Part shown: in pieces, positions 13,640 to 52,006 of the stretch | How positions within the stretch are numbered: position 1 is the stretch's first letter | Layout of the letters: every line of letters begins with the position of its first letter | Source: Octopus vulgaris | Lineage: Eukaryota | DNA: 64,000 bases | Direction: 5' to 3' | NCBI GenBank assembly: GCA_951406725.2 | Contig: OX597830.1 | Span: 17,546,001-17,610,000 of the forward strand | Notes under the pieces: generated by a model | The model's database searches: none | Told to the model about the DNA's origin: nothing | The model's input: the letters and a program-made list of their open reading frames with translations, nothing else | Translations under genes and position numbers: made by a program

Positions 13640-14005
13640 ATTTTCTTGTACACTTTTCAGTTATTGGATTGTGGCCATGCAGGAGCGCCACATTGAATAG
13701 TTTTAGTCGAATAGATCGACCCCATTGCATATTTATCTGGCAGGTTCTTATTGTATCAGTTTCTTTTGCTGAACCGCTAATTTTCGGATATGTAAACCAA
13801 CAAATACTGGTGGTGGGGGACACTCAACACAAACACACATACACATATATAACACATATATATGACTTCAAAAAGGATATAGATTTTTTTTTTTAGAAAA
13901 ACTGAAATCCCGAGACAAACTCTTGCCCATGGTGCCGCGCAGTGGGATTGAACCCGAAAGAATGTGATTGGGAGCAAACGTCTTACTACACAGCTACCCT
14001 GCATC
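13640..14005 (-). mobile_element. SINE family B, degenerate
   Basis: Homologous to the copy at 23198-23585. Confidence 0.7.
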
Positions 14006-14159
14006 TATTGCTATATAATCCGGTGACTATGCATAATAGCTCTAGCTTATCACAAGAACTCAAGCTAATACAGTTCTATGTTTAAGAGATGAGGAATTAT
14101 GTACATTATTTACATTATTTACATTCGCCGGATATTTGTCCTCATCTTGTTTGTTGTTA

Positions 14160-14203
14160 ACACAACGTTTCGGTTGATATACCCCCAAGCCTTCTTCAGG
14201 TGT
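14160..14203 (-). ncRNA. Minimal type I hammerhead ribozyme motif (Penelope-like)
   Basis: Minus strand reads acac-CUGAAGA-aggcu...aacc-GAAA-cg-UU-gugu: helix I acac/gugu, conserved core, palindromic AACGUU in place of helix III. Confidence 0.7.
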
Positions 14204-14297
14204 CTTGGGGACATTTCGAACCTGGGTTTTCATTCCTAAGGTATTTTTCGATGTTGTTGTTATTCTTCTTCTTATTATTATTATCATTATTATTATA

Positions 14298-14342
<45 letters not shown>

Positions 14343-14375
14343 ACAATAATAATAACCTCTACGTCATATGCCCAC

Positions 14376-14455
14376 GGGCATATGGCGTAATGTTTAAGAG
14401 CGCGGGCTACTACTAACTCCAAGATTCCGAGTTCGTTTCGAAGCAGTGACCTGAA
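14376..14455 (+). mobile_element. tRNA-derived SINE head followed by (AAT)n
   Basis: A-box-like TGGCGTAATGTT and B-box-like GAGTTCGTTTC at tRNA-like spacing. Confidence 0.65.
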
Positions 14456-14493
14456 CAATAATAATAATAATAATAATGATGATAATAATGATG

Positions 14494-14577
<84 letters not shown>

Positions 14578-14832
14578 TAATTACAGTTGGAACGCCTTTG
14601 ATAAATATCTAATTGATCAGTGGTGATCTGCGGTTAAACCTGAACAATGTAAAATAACATACATCAAGATACCCTCTGTCTCAATACGTAGGGATGGTCG
14701 CGATTGGATCAGATTTAATCAGAAACGAACTGGGACTAAAAAAAAACCACCACCACCTACAAGAAGAATATTATTACCATTGGCATCATCAATATCATCA
14801 CCACAACCACATCAATATTAATACCAAAGCTA

Positions 14833-15045
14833 AGACAGCGAGCTGGCAGAATCGTTGGCACGTCGGGCAAAATGCTTAGCGGCATTTTGTCCGTCTTTAC
14901 GTCCTTGGTTCAAATTCCGTCGAGGTTGACTTTGTCTTTTATCGTTCGTGATCGGTAAAATAAATACCAGTTGAGCACTGGGGTCGGCGTAATTGATTTA
15001 AGCCTTCACCCTCAAATTGCTGGTCTTCTGCCAAAATTTGAAAAC
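14833..15045 (+). mobile_element. SINE family A, degenerate
   Basis: GCGAGCTGGCAGAATCGTT...CACTGGGGTCG matches family A. Confidence 0.75.
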
Positions 15046-16600: not shown

Positions 16601-16817
16601 GATAAAGAATAAATACGAAGAGATAGTTAAATAAACAAACGCGTGGGGGAGAGATGACACAATGGATATATCTATTTCAACAACTGACTGATCCAGTACT
16701 GTCATATTATTGGGTGTCCAGGCTTCATTTATCGCCGTTGTTAATTCCTACCCAATCGAGATTGAACACTCATAAGGCATATCTCCAAAGGTGTTTCAGA
16801 TACACACACACACACAC

Positions 16818-16941
<124 letters not shown>

Positions 16942-17599
16942 CTATTTATCTGAGACTCCGTTGTCTAATGGATTCTTAATTGTAAGATTAGTGCTTGATC
17001 TGATGGAGCTTTGGCTGCTATTTCTAACAGGTCAAGCACCAGCACCAGCTCCAGCTTCAGCAGAAGCAGAACCACCACCACCACCACCTCTCTCCTTGAA
17101 ATAACCGATAGTAACAACATTATCATCGATATTTTTTTCCTCTATCATTAGAAATATTAGCGGGACACGTGAATATTTCACTAATGGTAAACTTATTTAT
17201 TTCTCGAAACCTTATCCAAAAAAACCTGAAAGCATTTTGGAAAGATAGTCGCTCATTGAAAAGTGAAAGAAATTGGAATACGATGATTACTTAATGCACT
17301 TTATATACTTTATGCTTAATTTTATAGGCTCAATACACAACACTCTCCCTCTGTCTCTCTCACTCTTCGCCTTACCCTCCTTTTTCTTTCGCTTTTCGCC
17401 TTTTCCTTCAAACAGTCACGTGAAAGCTTTACAGACGGACAACATAATCGAAGTAAAAAACACCTTGTTAAAAAAATACACATTTCACTAACCTTCCCCT
17501 TCTCAACCCCTCCCATTCTTCCTCTCCCTCCTCCTTAAACTAATCATGTGGAAGCGTAACGGACGGGCTAAGTAACGGGGTGACAAACAGAATTGTAGA

Positions 17600-46427: not shown

Positions 46428-46659
46428 CTTCCGACGCCGTTAGACGTACGTGAATCAGCTCCGTGAATTTGACACCAATTTCATTGGAAATCTATTAATA
46501 GGTTTGAATATTTTTTAATATTTCTGTAGCCAAACCGACCGGCTTCTTGCGGAGCTCGTCGGTTGGGCGAAATTTTGCCCCATTCGGGGTGAAATTGCGT
46601 TTGAAAATTTTGAACATTTGACATTTTTCAACATTTTGAATATTACAACAAGAAAAAAC

Positions 46660-47683
46660 ATGGCTATGAAGCGAACAGTTGGCTGTTCCTTCCTTCAAAA
46701 TACACTCCCTCCGCAAACACGCACAACTCGTACAAAACACCCACTTCACGCCTTAAAAGGCAACAAAGATTCTCCTTCCGAACCGCAGAGCACGCGCTCG
46801 GTTCAAAAGGAAAATGCAAGTCATGACGTCGCGTTCGACGTAATTCTTGATTTTCCCCCTCTGCCTTCACCCAATGCTTTGGTAAGGAAGGAGGAGGGAG
46901 AAAAAACAAATACAAAAATCATCACAAACATTGACACGGAGATAAAAGAAAAAACTTCCAACAATTTTGCTTCTGCTGCGAAGCAAATTTCGGAGGAAGT
47001 TAAGATAACTCTAGAAGATGTGAAAAGAGCGAAGGAATTGTTAAGGAAGGATGGCAATGGTATCTTCCTCAATACTCCAGAAGAGGTGATTGAAAGCACC
47101 AACAAGCAAACAATAATTTACAAAGTTTTCGACAGAAAACTAAAAAGAATAACAAATGCCACACCCCAACAGTTGGAGATAGCTCTAAAGCCCATTTGGG
47201 CCCAAAAGAGCTACGTAACCAAGGGGAAGCGTTTTGGAACCGTGGAGGTTCGCTTCCCAACAGAGGAGCTGGCAAGGGCGAACGCCATTTCGCCCTTGCA
47301 AACTGAGAATTTGTTACTAATTCCAACCCACCTCGGGCGAAGAGTTACAAAAATAAAAATCGACCTCGTCCCCCCTGAATTAAATATGTCATGGCTGGTG
47401 GCAGCTGTCCTCTATGATATAGAGGACACTACCACCATTCTAGATGTCAGGAGAGTGAGGGCGAAAAACTGGTTGGGGATGGGAGTGCTGCTTCTTGCGC
47501 AAATTCAGCAAGAGAATATAAGTAAAGTCCCTGATTTCGTAAGTTTGCCGGACGGCACTAGGCTAAACGTTGCTGTGGAGGGGCGAAAGCCAAAATGCTT
47601 TCTCTGCAGCAGCGAAAGCCACTTAAAGAGGGACTGTCCCATTCACAAAAAGAGGATGGAGGCTTTCAGCAAGAGGCAGCAGC

Positions 47684-47729
<46 letters not shown>

Positions 47730-48600
47730 CAAGCAACAACAACAGAAACAACAAAAACAGCAAGAAACACCAAAGGCTGCCACACCACCAACACCATCAC
47801 CAACACCAGCACCAAGACGAGCAACACCACCTCCAACAACAACAACCACCACCAAACCAACACCGACAACCACCACCAAACCAACACCGACACCAGTACC
47901 TCGAAGGTCGACAGCAGCGACATCAACAGTAACAGGAGCAGCGGCACCACCGATACCGGTGGAACCAGAAACTTTTCGTCCTGCTACTGAAGCAGACCCC
48001 TCAACCATTCCTTTGCCGGATGAAGAGATCTCGGATTGTGCGAGCTCTGATTCCAACAAAGGAGAATGGAGTATAGTGCCTCCAAAGAAGAAAAGGAGGA
48101 AGAAACAAAAAGATTTACAGGGGAAGCACGAACAAATAGTGCTTCCCAACATCAACAACAACAACAACAACAACACACACTCACAACAACAAACAACAAC
48201 AACACTTTCGACACCACTACTGCCACTGCCACACACACAAACACACACAGACACAATTACATCAATAAACACAAAGAACCAAAAACTAGTGGAGTACTTA
48301 AAAAACAAAACTAGTACAAATATAACCGATTTCATCATACCAACACAAAACACACCACCAGCACACATTCTCACAATAAAAATAAATGCAAAATCATATG
48401 ATGAAATCAAACAAATATTCCCTAACGATGTGGGATCGCTAGGAAAAGTTTCTCGAAGAAACTTTATAAAAACATTGTGGAAGCACCCGTGCAAAAGCAC
48501 AAGGGAGCCACCCCCACCACCAACAACAGTAAGTAGAGCCTTTTTTTCTCCTTTTTCCCCCTACTTTGAGACATGGCAAATCTTAGAATCGGTTGCTTGA
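46660..48600 (+). CDS. LINE ORF1 protein (646 aa from the first ATG) with RRM-like region and CCHC knuckle
   Basis: KGKRFGTVEVRF; CFLCSSESHLKRDC (CX2CX4HX4C); polyQ and Pro/Thr-rich tail; NLS-like PPKKKRRKK. Confidence 0.88.
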
Positions 48601-51434
48601 ATGTGAGAGGCCTCGGGTCACCTTGGAAACAGGGTCACCTGTTAAACGACCTGAGGTTTCATGATGTGGATGTAGCAGCCATCAGTGAAACCAGGCTCTC
48701 CGACCCGCAGGAACTCGCAGCCCTTTTCGGCGGATACGAGATATTTCTATCTCCGTGTCGGCCGGGAGCGGGCGGTGGTGGTACTGCGGTGTTGTTTCGG
48801 AAGGGCCTGGACCTGAAAATAAGGACAGTCTTCTTGGATCCGGAAGGTAAGTTGGTGGTCCTCGACGTCGACGGTAGTGACGGCGGTGCTTTCAGACTGC
48901 TGGCTGCCTACGCTCCGACAGGAGCAGGGCAGTCGGATTATTTCAAACGTCTGGAAGTTTTCCTGGGAACGTCACGCACTCTAGTACTAGTTGGGGATTG
49001 GAACGCTGTCTTAGACGAACGTTTCGATCGGGTGGGCAGGGGAGCGTCTGTTAGGAGAGGGGGAGGGTGCAAGAGCCTCGCCAACCTACTCGGCCGCTTT
49101 CAGCTGTCCGACAGGTTTCGACTAGACAACCCGAATGTGCCAATGTGGACTTGGACAAACCGCATCGGGTCGTCTAGATCGTACTTAGATAGAGTGTTTT
49201 GTAGGCCAGCGGATAAGGACAGCGTAGGGTGTCCACAATTCCACCTAGTCGAATATACGGACCACAAATTAGTGATCTGTACGGTCGACTTAGATAGGCT
49301 ACATAGACAGGGACCCGGCTACTGGAAGCTGAACGCGTCGTTAACGGCGTGCAAAGCTTACAGAGACCGGATTAGTTTACTAGTTAAGCGGGCGCTCACG
49401 GGGGCAATCATCAACAACAACTGGTGGTTTGCCCTCAAGAGAGCAATTAGAGTAGAGTCGATTAGGTATAGTAAGACTCTAGCTATTGAACGTAGGAAGA
49501 GAGAGCGGGATTTAGTTAAGAAACTAGACGAGGCTCTTGACACTGGCATCGCGACTGACGTGTTGGCGGCAAGGTTGGCCCTCGACCAACACTTCGACGC
49601 CAAACACGAAGGCTGCGTTGTCAGAGCTAAGGCACGTTCGCTAAACGGGGAGGGGACTAGAGCCGCTCGATGGGCCCGCGTGGCGGAGGCGAAGCGAGGC
49701 AACAAAGCAACCATTCGGTCTTTGGTGGACCAGAACGGGCGTGAGGTTACCCAACCGAAGCAGATGTGTACGGTGCTTCAGCGGCACTTTGCTCAACTGT
49801 TTGGGACGAGCGGTGGAACGGACACCAACGGTACAGACTTCGGTGTGTACCTGGACGGACTGCCGCAACTCTCGGACAGCGAGGCGGAGTGCTGCGAAGG
49901 ACCGATATCTGCCTGGGAAGTACAGGAAGCGATGAAGAGTTGCACGAGAGGTAGATCGCCGGGTTTGGATGGTCTGCCCTACGAGCTTTACTTTTCGATG
50001 CCAGACTTGTTTGCGGACCTGTTGGCAAACGTCTACTGCAACTGGCAGCAAAACGGGAGAATTCCTGCTTTTGTCTGTCGAGGGGTGGTGGCTTTGCTAA
50101 AGAAGGACCCAAACAAGGGGGACGTTATAGGGAATTTCCGGCCCATCACTCTGCTCAATGCAGAGTTGAAGATTTTGGCCAAGGTGCTAGCCAAGAGATT
50201 GGCGCTTGTCGTGGACAAGCTGGTCGGCGGGACGCAGACATGCGCCGTGCCGACCAGGTCGATACACGACAACCTCCATCTCATGCGCTACATCATAGAG
50301 AGGGTGGGTAACGACGCTGGCGCGGGTGGGGCTTTGATCAACTTGGATCAGAGTAAAGCCTTCGATAGGGTCGACCATCAGTACCTGGCAGCTGTCCTCA
50401 AGGCAGCCGGCTTCGGTCCAGTCTTCCGCGGGTGGATCGCTGCTTTATACAGCAACATCTGCTCGGTGATACGGGTGAACGGTCACCTTTCGGAACCGTT
50501 CGACATCTCGCGTTCGGTCCGCCAGGGATGCCCTCTCTCCTCCCTCTTGTACATTTTGACTCTCGAGCCATTACTGCGCAAGTTGGAGGCTTTGAGGGGC
50601 ATCCCGCGCGATCTAGGAGGCGGAAACAGCGTGTCTGCTTATGCCGACGACGTCACCGTGGTGGTGTCGAGCCACAGGCACATTAGCCTGATTGGCGAGA
50701 CGCTAAACCAGTACGAAGCGGTGACAGGGGCAAAGATTAACGCGGAAAAGTCTGTGGGCTTGCAACTGGGCACCTGGAGAGGCAAGCCCATGCCGTCCAA
50801 CAGCGTCGTAGGGCGCTGGACAGACGGACCCGTTAAACTGCTCGGGGTCTGGTTCGGTCCGGACCTACAGGTGGATAAGAACTGGGAAGAGGTGACGAGC
50901 AGAGTGGCACGTCTCACCCAGAAATGGGCCGAGAGGAAGCTGTCCCTGAAAGGTCGAGCGGAGGTGGCGAATGCGTACATCGCATCCGTCATCTATTACC
51001 GCTTGACCGTCGTCCCTTGTCCCAACCGCTGGTTGGCCAAGCTGGTACGTCTGCTCTTCGACTTTTTGTGGAAGGGTCAGGTGCCACTGGTCAGGCGATC
51101 CATCTGCTGTCAACGACCGCTGAACGGAGGCCTTGGAATGCCGTGGTTGCTGTTGCGCAGACATGCGCTCAGGCTGCGGCATCTCAAGCGCTTCCTAGAC
51201 GGTGAACAGGTGTGGTCGTCTTTTGTCAGACGCGATTTTCCGCAGCTCGTCTCTTTGACGGAGCTGCAGACCTGGATCAAACGTAGACCGAGAAAGGGCG
51301 CTTGGCACCTCGAGTGCCGTCAAGCCCTCTCCGCCCTCCACCAGGCGGGCAATGCGGTCGGTTACAGCTCCACTCTAGCGTTCTATAGAGGGTTAGTGGA
51401 GGAAAATGCGACGACGTTCTCGGGGAAACTCTAG
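48573..51434 (+). CDS. LINE ORF2: APE endonuclease and reverse transcriptase
   Basis: CLNVRGL, ISET, GDWN, SYLDR, TDH; WKLN; SPGLDGL; NFRPITLLN; LDQSKAFD; VRQGCPLS; YADD. Confidence 0.96.
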   Translation: MANLRIGCLNVRGLGSPWKQGHLLNDLRFHDVDVAAISETRLSDPQELAALFGGYEIFLSPCRPGAGGGGTAVLFRKGLDLKIRTVFLDPEGKLVVLDVDGSDGGAFRLLAAYAPTGAGQSDYFKRLEVFLGTSRTLVLVGDWNAVLDERFDRVGRGASVRRGGGCKSLANLLGRFQLSDRFRLDNPNVPMWTWTNRIGSSRSYLDRVFCRPADKDSVGCPQFHLVEYTDHKLVICTVDLDRLHRQGPGYWKLNASLTACKAYRDRISLLVKRALTGAIINNNWWFALKRAIRVESIRYSKTLAIERRKRERDLVKKLDEALDTGIATDVLAARLALDQHFDAKHEGCVVRAKARSLNGEGTRAARWARVAEAKRGNKATIRSLVDQNGREVTQPKQMCTVLQRHFAQLFGTSGGTDTNGTDFGVYLDGLPQLSDSEAECCEGPISAWEVQEAMKSCTRGRSPGLDGLPYELYFSMPDLFADLLANVYCNWQQNGRIPAFVCRGVVALLKKDPNKGDVIGNFRPITLLNAELKILAKVLAKRLALVVDKLVGGTQTCAVPTRSIHDNLHLMRYIIERVGNDAGAGGALINLDQSKAFDRVDHQYLAAVLKAAGFGPVFRGWIAALYSNICSVIRVNGHLSEPFDISRSVRQGCPLSSLLYILTLEPLLRKLEALRGIPRDLGGGNSVSAYADDVTVVVSSHRHISLIGETLNQYEAVTGAKINAEKSVGLQLGTWRGKPMPSNSVVGRWTDGPVKLLGVWFGPDLQVDKNWEEVTSRVARLTQKWAERKLSLKGRAEVANAYIASVIYYRLTVVPCPNRWLAKLVRLLFDFLWKGQVPLVRRSICCQRPLNGGLGMPWLLLRRHALRLRHLKRFLDGEQVWSSFVRRDFPQLVSLTELQTWIKRRPRKGAWHLECRQALSALHQAGNAVGYSSTLAFYRGLVEENATTFSGKL

Positions 51435-52006
51435 GCGTTGAAGACGACGAACTGAGCAGTCTGTTCGGGAGGACTTTCGGGCCGGGGCCGATGGATAATT
51501 TCCAGAGGTCTCTCGCCTGGCAGTGCTACCGAGGGGCTCTGCCTGTTCGAGATAAACTCTACCGGCACGGAAGTGCCGTCAGCCGGGCCTGCCCGAGGTG
51601 TTGCCAGGACGACGAAACCGTTCTGCACGCACTCGTCCAGTGCCCGAGTATTGCTGAAATATGGGTTTATGTCGAACAGCTACTGTCACGTGTGGGACGG
51701 ATCCGACTATCGGCCGAATCCATAGTGAAGATTGCCCCGCCGACCTCCTTTAACAAGGAGGGCGAGGCCGTTTTCTTGTGCCTAGTGGCTGTGGCGAAAG
51801 AGGTCGTGTGGTGGACTCGTTTAAAAGGGCTAAAGACAGACACTTTCCTCTTTGGTCAAGGCCTCATCAACTTTTTCAAGTTTCACTTGAAAAGGAAGAT
51901 GAGGTTAGAGAGGAAGGTGCTGTCCGATAGCAAGTTTTATGAAAGGTGGGTGAATTGTGCGAGACTGGCCTGTATAAATGGACCAGTTCTCAGGTTTCGC
52001 CTGTGA
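51400..52006 (+). CDS. ORF2 C-terminus after the frameshift, including the zinc finger
   Basis: Frame is open from ~51400 (KCDDVLGETLG...) into ORF 51491-52006, which contains CPRCCQDDETVLHALVQC. Confidence 0.88.

Follow-up and report, generated by a model that had tools for sequence, protein, structure and literature searches.

Anatomy of the insertion

The window, by which we mean the whole 64,000-nucleotide stretch of Octopus vulgaris DNA that was analysed, contains two repeat arms that meet head to head. The left arm lies on the minus strand. Its outer part (14069 to 14250) is a tail that corresponds to the 5′ end of the open reading frame (ORF) of a Penelope-like element (PLE) and reaches the long form of the 3′ end (…AGAACTGTA), the PLE extension of 30-40 bp included. 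In translation, an ATG at 14233-14231 starts 55 stop-free codons, and the minimal hammerhead that had been predicted on this strand can be read directly from the sequence inside the coding frame (14204-14159); it has a type I layout, a predicted cut at 14164/14163 and a mutated helix II. Inward of the tail, an (AAT)n spacer with some 15 nt of inverted (ATT)n where the arms meet (14251 to 14356, by sequence reading) gives way to a 15-nt stub at 14373-14359, which repeats positions 1-15 of the head found in the right arm. This stub is inverted with respect to the intact head and co-oriented with the tail, and it had been overlooked; stubs of about 9-24 nt are typical of the family.

The right arm, on the plus strand, begins with the tRNA-like head of the original prediction, which resembles tRNA-Arg(ACG) (14376 to 14452; A box at 14383-14393 and B box at 14431-14439, each with two changes relative to the family majority). 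An (AAT)n spacer follows (14454 to 14575), and no tail stands behind it in this arm. The arms join at a foldback, CATATGCCC-AC-GGGCATATG (14365-14384), that is placed, as judged from the sequence and from its recurrence, on the native TGCCC-AC-GGGCA palindrome at the head start of the element. The foldback is real: its arms extend to 14 bp with one mismatch (z = −5.75 against shuffles), and the exact 21-nt junction was found 296 times in the genome, compared with 0 for the control. A possible target-site duplication at 14578 to 14588 on the plus strand, a single inferred case, matches 14066-14075 and overlaps the last 7 nt of the element; duplications in the family are 7-14 bp long.

The window copy is of the common type, with an intact head on the plus strand and a 15-nt stub joined to the long-tailed arm on the minus strand. 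The head had been thought to be inverted in this one copy of an otherwise collinear element. What was read as an inverted head belongs instead to the other arm of an insertion of the head-to-head PLE type. We consider it probable that the stretch represents one decayed head-to-head insertion of the 3′ pseudo-LTR (pLTR) of an abundant Penelope/Poseidon-type retrotransposon, a judgement made jointly with the reading of the head as an RNA polymerase III (Pol III) promoter that is developed below.

Other repeats were noted in the window. Abundant interspersed repeats, presumably tRNA-derived SINEs by resemblance, lie on both sides of the insertion (14830-15040 and 13690-13830), and a long imperfect inverted repeat with a (TA)n run at its centre occupies 16786-16963. 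Two long ORFs and a third fragment stand in a row on the plus strand (46518-48597, 48569-51430 and 51388-52000); we take them to resemble an L1/Tx1-like LINE with ORF1 and an endonuclease-reverse transcriptase (RT) ORF2.

Head, spacer and tail form the pLTR of an autonomous element

The genome searched comprises 2.8 Gb in 227 contigs. Separate searches returned 2,629 candidates for the tail and 1,182 for the head, and an exact tail 29-mer had 6,370 matches, with 0 for the reversed control. The proposal that head, (AAT)n and tail are one co-oriented unit was borne out by counts made by eye, in which 26 of 29 head-selected loci had the tail and 21 of 29 tail-selected loci had the head. The C-terminus of a PLE ORF was found directly upstream of the head in L004, L009, L013, L042 and L055. 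A search with the ORF end gave 2,914 candidates, and the head stood right behind the ORF in 28 of 29 loci. The autonomous PLE that had been expected to share the tail thus exists, and it carries the head and (AAT)n as well. The order of the element is ORF (RT and a GIY-YIG-type endonuclease), 33 nt, head, (AAT)n, and the hammerhead-bearing tail, which encodes the ORF N-terminus.

The near-full-length but decayed copy L122 consists of an inverted pLTR, a pLTR end, an ORF of about 2.3 kb, the 33 nt, head, (AAT)n and tail. Its ORF matches RVT_1 (E = 5.8e-8), and over 176 aa it has 68% identity with a relative of 806 aa. The motifs YSIPCSC…YKGET…EH…ADH can be read in the translations. Pfam gave no GIY-YIG match in the ORF, and the endonuclease is assigned by these motifs together with the part of PMC8557442 available to us. 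A single ORF thus encodes RT followed by a C-terminal GIY-YIG endonuclease bearing CCHH, and inspection of L122 and its relatives P0001 and P0025 by eye revealed no CX2-5CxxC linker between the two domains. The assignment to PLEs is by anatomy rather than by RT phylogeny; a PDB sequence search gave weak RT matches only. Relatives in metagenomes (9 loci, 30-55% identity) are too distant for dating the capture of the head, and the 6 that were scanned had no A/B-box head.

The ATG located 18 nt into the tail shares the reading frame of the ORF in four of the seven tandem junctions examined, with a fully open frame in L283. The tail is therefore the 5′ end of the ORF with the hammerhead inside it, and the short unit is a pseudo-LTR. 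The tail also stands directly before the ORF start in most N-terminal loci, and partial tandems occur in L302, L304 and L224. Judged by sequence, the head, the (AAT)n and the hammerhead tail almost certainly constitute one unit, the 3′ pLTR of an autonomous Penelope/Poseidon-type element. LINE fragments, presumably Dong/R4-like by their motifs, were seen within the (AAT)n spacer, where they part head from tail (L026:620-1320, L034:1580-2300, L253:1527-2200 and L021:1170-1410), and the spacer appears to be an insertion target.

The hammerhead motif

On the minus strand, the window motif reads GACAC (14204-14200), CTGAAGA, an unpaired A, helix II, GAAAC-GTT and GTGTT (to 14159), and the palindrome AACGTT occupies the place of helix III. 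This layout agrees with the minimal PLE hammerhead as PMC4209133 describes it in the part available, and the assignment of the hammerhead to the PLE type in the original prediction stands. The window copy fails a strict descriptor and folds into a different hairpin; from its mutated helix II we predict that it is probably inactive. The minimum-energy fold of copy L004 has hammerhead helices I and II, and a descriptor search gave 97 matches in the family. The family columns, with the L004 fold, display the CUGANGA and GAAA cores, helices I and II, a palindromic helix III and an NUH site, and the clearest polymorphism outside CpG sites is at the free position N7; the copies sampled are dead inserts about 6-7% diverged. 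Rfam scans gave no model match for hammerhead or head at E ≤ 5 or 10. The motif looks like the ordinary ribozyme of a PLE pLTR, whose cleavage would need a dimer or help from protein, and it is dispensable for explaining the structure of the insertion.

A second, AT-rich hammerhead repeat family (L314-L343), with a core ending in CGAAACGCGT, has 194 exact-pattern matches (control, 2). It displays apparent covariation in helix I, inverted pairs (L328/L329) and T-runs; in these loci there was no A/B box and no ORF within 1.5 kb. Minimal-hammerhead-like motifs of further repeat families lie at L068:3100-3130 and L005:1330-1400.

The head resembles tRNA-Arg(ACG)

Compared with tRNA genes of the same genome, the head scored best with Arg(ACG) among the 11 types sampled, an incomplete set, and the 5′ ends were in register. 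The score against the host tRNA-Arg(ACG) was 65, and the best of 2,000 shuffles reached 51.5. The A-box pattern is kept in 113 of 178 heads and the B-box pattern in 104 of 178, the patterns being those given in the available part of PMC8969392, from which the family majority has one mismatch. ARAGORN found no tRNA in the window, and at a lowered threshold it gave only incoherent folds in three of eight heads. The head is therefore tRNA-like by sequence and boxes and not by fold, the cloverleaf having been lost, and its proposed tRNA derivation is supported by the score and the box patterns. A tandem cluster of about 24 tRNA-Arg(ACG) genes was observed at G000:C2:211887733-211907126.

Inverted pairs as products of single integration events

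Arm ends were determined in 88 arms drawn from the listed 29-mer matches of contig C1; two overlapping loci were dropped, and a match lying within L122 and the final five of the list are outside the sample. The 3′ ends fall into two groups (about 121-156 and 169-183), and 52 of the 88 arms have an inverted partner. Among 71 two-arm insertions (within L125-L274), 67 pair a long 3′ end with a short one. A repeat of 7-14 nt flanks 44 of the 71, compared with 7% of mismatched pairs, the null, in which at least 7 nt was required. The long and short ends together with one target duplication indicate that each inverted pair arose in one event that was primed at the two outer ends.

When 30 foldback loci were classed by eye, the complete head lay on the native AC side in 19, on the GT side in 8, on both sides in 1 and on neither in 2, and a stub of about 9-24 nt was left on the short side. 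These classes and the stubs are explained if copying was primed by the hairpin, which then opened asymmetrically or was joined by microhomology.

According to the available part of PMC11167929, both strands are cut and extended by a PLE protein whose RT starts at two internal sites in vitro; inverted copies and a 30-40 bp tail are described for PLEs in the part of PMC8557442 seen. The long-and-short pairs and the target duplications, taken with these in vitro data, suggest twin priming from two RT start sites. In the model that we propose, the RNA would start about 6 nt upstream of the head. The PLE protein would then nick both target strands and prime RT at two internal tail sites, giving one long and one short arm. 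A cDNA that reached the RNA 5′ end would fold back on the TGCCC-AC-GGGCA palindrome and copy part of the head, after which the hairpin might open or be extended, and microhomology would link it either to the second cDNA or to the target.

Most arms that reach the head start end there

Among the 88 sampled arms, the tail and the AAT run each contain the ends of 17 and the head those of 11; 34 end at −7 to +12 relative to the head start, and 9 read through. Consequently, 34 of the 43 arms that reach the head start stop there. No end was seen at −8 to −25 in this sample, and truncation elsewhere in the element runs at about 0.3% per nt. The peak suggests a defined RNA 5′ end. Type 2 Pol III promoters start transcription a few bases upstream of tRNA +1, which is where the peak falls. 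From this coincidence and from the boxes we favour the interpretation that the tRNA-Arg(ACG)-like segment works as an internal Pol III promoter in the pLTR, and we hold it with fair, though far from full, confidence. Because most copies begin at the head, the earlier Pol III claim survives in altered form: the promoter is kept, as an internal promoter of the pLTR, and its role as the promoter of a separate SINE is given up. About 8 of 30 native-junction loci have their ends at −17 to −45, which would mean that the ends of some RNAs or cDNAs lie slightly further upstream of the head. Ends near −17 to −26 were observed in L228, L241, L242 and L162, and a minor second RNA start is possible there. 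RNase P processing was rejected as the cause of the peak, given that many ends lie at −2 to −7, upstream of tRNA +1.

One alternative hypothesis is that the head is an inert relic of a captured tRNA or SINE in the same PLE pLTR, and that the peak reflects either a Pol II start of the PLE mRNA, with RT from the internal site of the 5′ pLTR, or a foldback hot spot on a long RNA. The native palindrome sits exactly at the peak, and exact foldback junctions (296, AC form) occur about as often as native read-through junctions (402, AC or AT). Moreover, 11 of the 34 peak ends are exactly at −7, a position that foldback at the palindrome yields by itself. The head has no tRNA fold, and the ORF needs translation, which favours Pol II for the full-length RNA. 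The pLTR promoter of Drosophila Penelope, as reported in the available part of PMC2377424, is a LINE-like internal promoter with a DPE, which likewise counts against Pol III. However, many of the other peak ends are not foldbacks and join tail sequence or flank by microhomology at −6 to +6; a hairpin of 4-5 bp is a weak block; and with the low background truncation, a 79% stop needs an RNA end, which lies at the start position expected of a type 2 Pol III promoter. We therefore regard the relic hypothesis as a serious minority view, clearly less likely than an internal Pol III promoter.

Two further comparisons bear on the peak. The second hammerhead family, which lacks the boxes, has scattered 5′ limits that include a cluster of 7 of 30 at −323 to −349, so 5′ peaks need not mean Pol III, although this family is not a clean negative control. 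Among ORF-start loci with an upstream pLTR that reaches the head start, only one of three ends there. RNA-seq reads were drawn from three runs of one study of related or identical species, about 6% of each being read, with a library not built for circles. Thousands of reads matched, about equally on both strands, and the depth step at the head mirrors the genomic structure. No pile of molecule ends was seen in these portions of the three runs, and among the best-supported joints listed there was no back-joint at the predicted cut, in a library not made for circles. The RNA-seq data are uninformative as to a Pol III start and neither support nor refute it.

A more far-reaching hypothesis is that the autonomous coding PLE is itself driven by a captured tRNA-Arg Pol III promoter. 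Pol III would make both a short pLTR RNA and a full uncapped mRNA from a master ORF without T4 terminators, the element would be its own SINE, mass-producing solo pLTRs that bear the promoter and can be remobilised by its RT, and it would be a living intermediate towards Sm-alpha-like elements or retrozymes. The column majorities of the 2.3-kb body have no T4 run on the sense strand, with thin depth in the 5′ third. Against a codon-aware null, this scarcity was not significant (P 0.03-0.72 per copy), and in other A-rich ORFs 21 such runs were counted in 13.2 kb, compared with 15 in 15.4 kb. The scarcity of T4 runs is compatible with Pol III read-through but, being weak against the codon null and matched by other A-rich ORFs, was set aside as proof of it. 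We consider this extension of the internal-promoter reading unlikely, more so than the relic hypothesis.

No separate SINE lineage was found

The original prediction held that a separate Pol III SINE had borrowed a PLE end and stood between a SINE and a retrozyme. On that view, the SINE would be a Pol III family in its own right, copied from masters of its own and moved in trans by the PLE. Most copies are indeed short and begin at the head, and the head with its A and B boxes is present, as are target-site duplications, which surround the whole two-arm unit. A tRNA SINE family should, however, be distinct from its partner, with the head absent from the partner, and here head and tail are native to the autonomous element.

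The polymorphisms of the masters, in head and tail, are common to ORF-linked copies and to copies that start at the head (head-start copies). The two main haplotypes occur in both groups, and the tail divergence is 0.068 and 0.062 (n = 14 and 21). Head-start copies had no haplotype or diagnostic base of their own. In a tree of 121 rows, the 31 ORF-linked rows are scattered, with 27 label changes, a count without a shuffle null. Two differences do favour a lineage of their own: haplotype GTTA is carried by 35 of 90 head-start copies and by 5 of 31 ORF-linked copies, and the heads of head-start copies are slightly less diverged (0.089 vs 0.117, p 0.013). Given this excess and the lower head divergence, some remobilisation of solo pLTRs may have occurred. 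The non-native GT loop on the complete arm of 8 of 30 foldback loci is also what second-generation copies would give; such loops are equally expected from asymmetric opening of a hairpin, which suffices, and second-generation SINE copying was set aside as a needed cause.

Nor was any retrozyme feature, either tandem arrays or circles, found. Instead of tandem repeats each with a hammerhead, the copies are dispersed, solo or inverted, and an adjacent tandem tail was seen in only 2 of the 88 sampled arms (L160 and L209). An independent SINE family is thus improbable, and no SINE-specific lineage need be separated from the PLE. Most insertions would then be solo pLTRs of SINE size, with the masters of the ORF-containing copies as their templates too.

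Finally, it can be dismissed that unrelated repeats came together by chance, or that assembly produced a spurious foldback (palindromes being prone to sequencing artefacts), because head and tail are linked in the counts above, as are ORF and head, the exact junction recurs 296 times with arms that differ by mutations, and contigs from four organisms share both the ORF-head junction and its loose ends at −7.

Discussion

By its output the octopus element appears to behave like a SINE, and by its anatomy it is assigned as a Penelope/Poseidon PLE pLTR. If the Pol III reading is true, the family illustrates how a PLE terminal repeat can give rise, from within, to a SINE-like family, and it offers a possible origin for hammerhead-bearing tRNA repeats such as Sm-alpha. 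Apart from Pol III, the family is a genomic record of PLE integration, with its long and short ends and one target duplication enclosing each inverted pair. The origin in PLEs of inverted pLTRs and "tails" can now be framed as a testable twin-priming model that fits the in vitro data in the part of PMC11167929 available. There is also a practical warning, namely that such PLE pLTR repeats may be annotated as SINEs.

Ohshima and Okada reportedly described in 1994 the octopus tRNA SINEs OR1, OR2 and OK, which are tRNA-derived repeats. They share a tRNA derivation with the head, and we take OR1 and OR2 to be of Arg origin. OR2 is listed as a CORE SINE in the part of PMC4758252 seen. Our literature search, the scope of which excluded Repbase, Dfam, SINEBase and most subscription papers, returned no report of a tRNA-derived segment in the pLTR of an autonomous PLE, nor of twin priming in PLEs. 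The family may already be catalogued, for example in repeat databases or in the supplements of PMC4209133 and PMC13282606.

The idea of a hammerhead in a tRNA SINE is not new, since Sm-alpha and Sj-alpha of Schistosoma are known. Like the octopus unit, they are tRNA-related, apparently Pol III-transcribed short repeats with a hammerhead (PMC2770079 and PMC6765202, in the parts available). Sm-alpha differs in having a canonical hammerhead, acting as a tandem repeat and lacking an ORF, whereas the octopus unit has a minimal hammerhead and forms a coding PLE's terminal repeat. Metazoan non-LTR retrozymes, as described in the accessible parts of PMC7761336 and bioRxiv 10.64898/2026.07.22.740005, are likewise short non-coding units with type I hammerheads related to those of PLE pLTRs. 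They form tandem arrays that yield circular RNA, in contrast to the octopus unit, which is dispersed and mostly solo or head-to-head. In the main text of the bioRxiv paper, the words "tRNA" and "promoter" are absent.

The capture of a small-RNA-derived Pol III promoter in a terminal repeat has a parallel in Helenus, Ajax and Cassandra (TRIMp3; PMC10886601, available in part). These are non-autonomous LTR elements with PBS and PPT, unlike the octopus element, in which the promoter-like segment resides in an autonomous PLE; the same source, in the part available, expects no long LTR sharing with autonomous partners.

The closest systems are Poseidon_Ac (PAc) of Anolis, as given in the available part of PMC11167929, and Penelope of D. 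virilis. The octopus element shares with them an RT plus, at the C-terminus, a GIY-YIG-type endonuclease with no extra Zn-finger linker seen, a minimal pLTR hammerhead that overlaps the ORF start (PMC11167929, in the same part), two 3′ ends 30-40 bp apart, inverted 5′ copies and partial tandems. Unlike them, its pLTR contains a tRNA-Arg-like segment with A and B boxes and (AAT)n, and most copies stop at this segment rather than being truncated at scattered positions. Compared with known PLEs, the features that set the octopus family apart are thus the putative tRNA-Arg(ACG)-derived head in the pLTR and the concentration of arm ends at −7 to +12.
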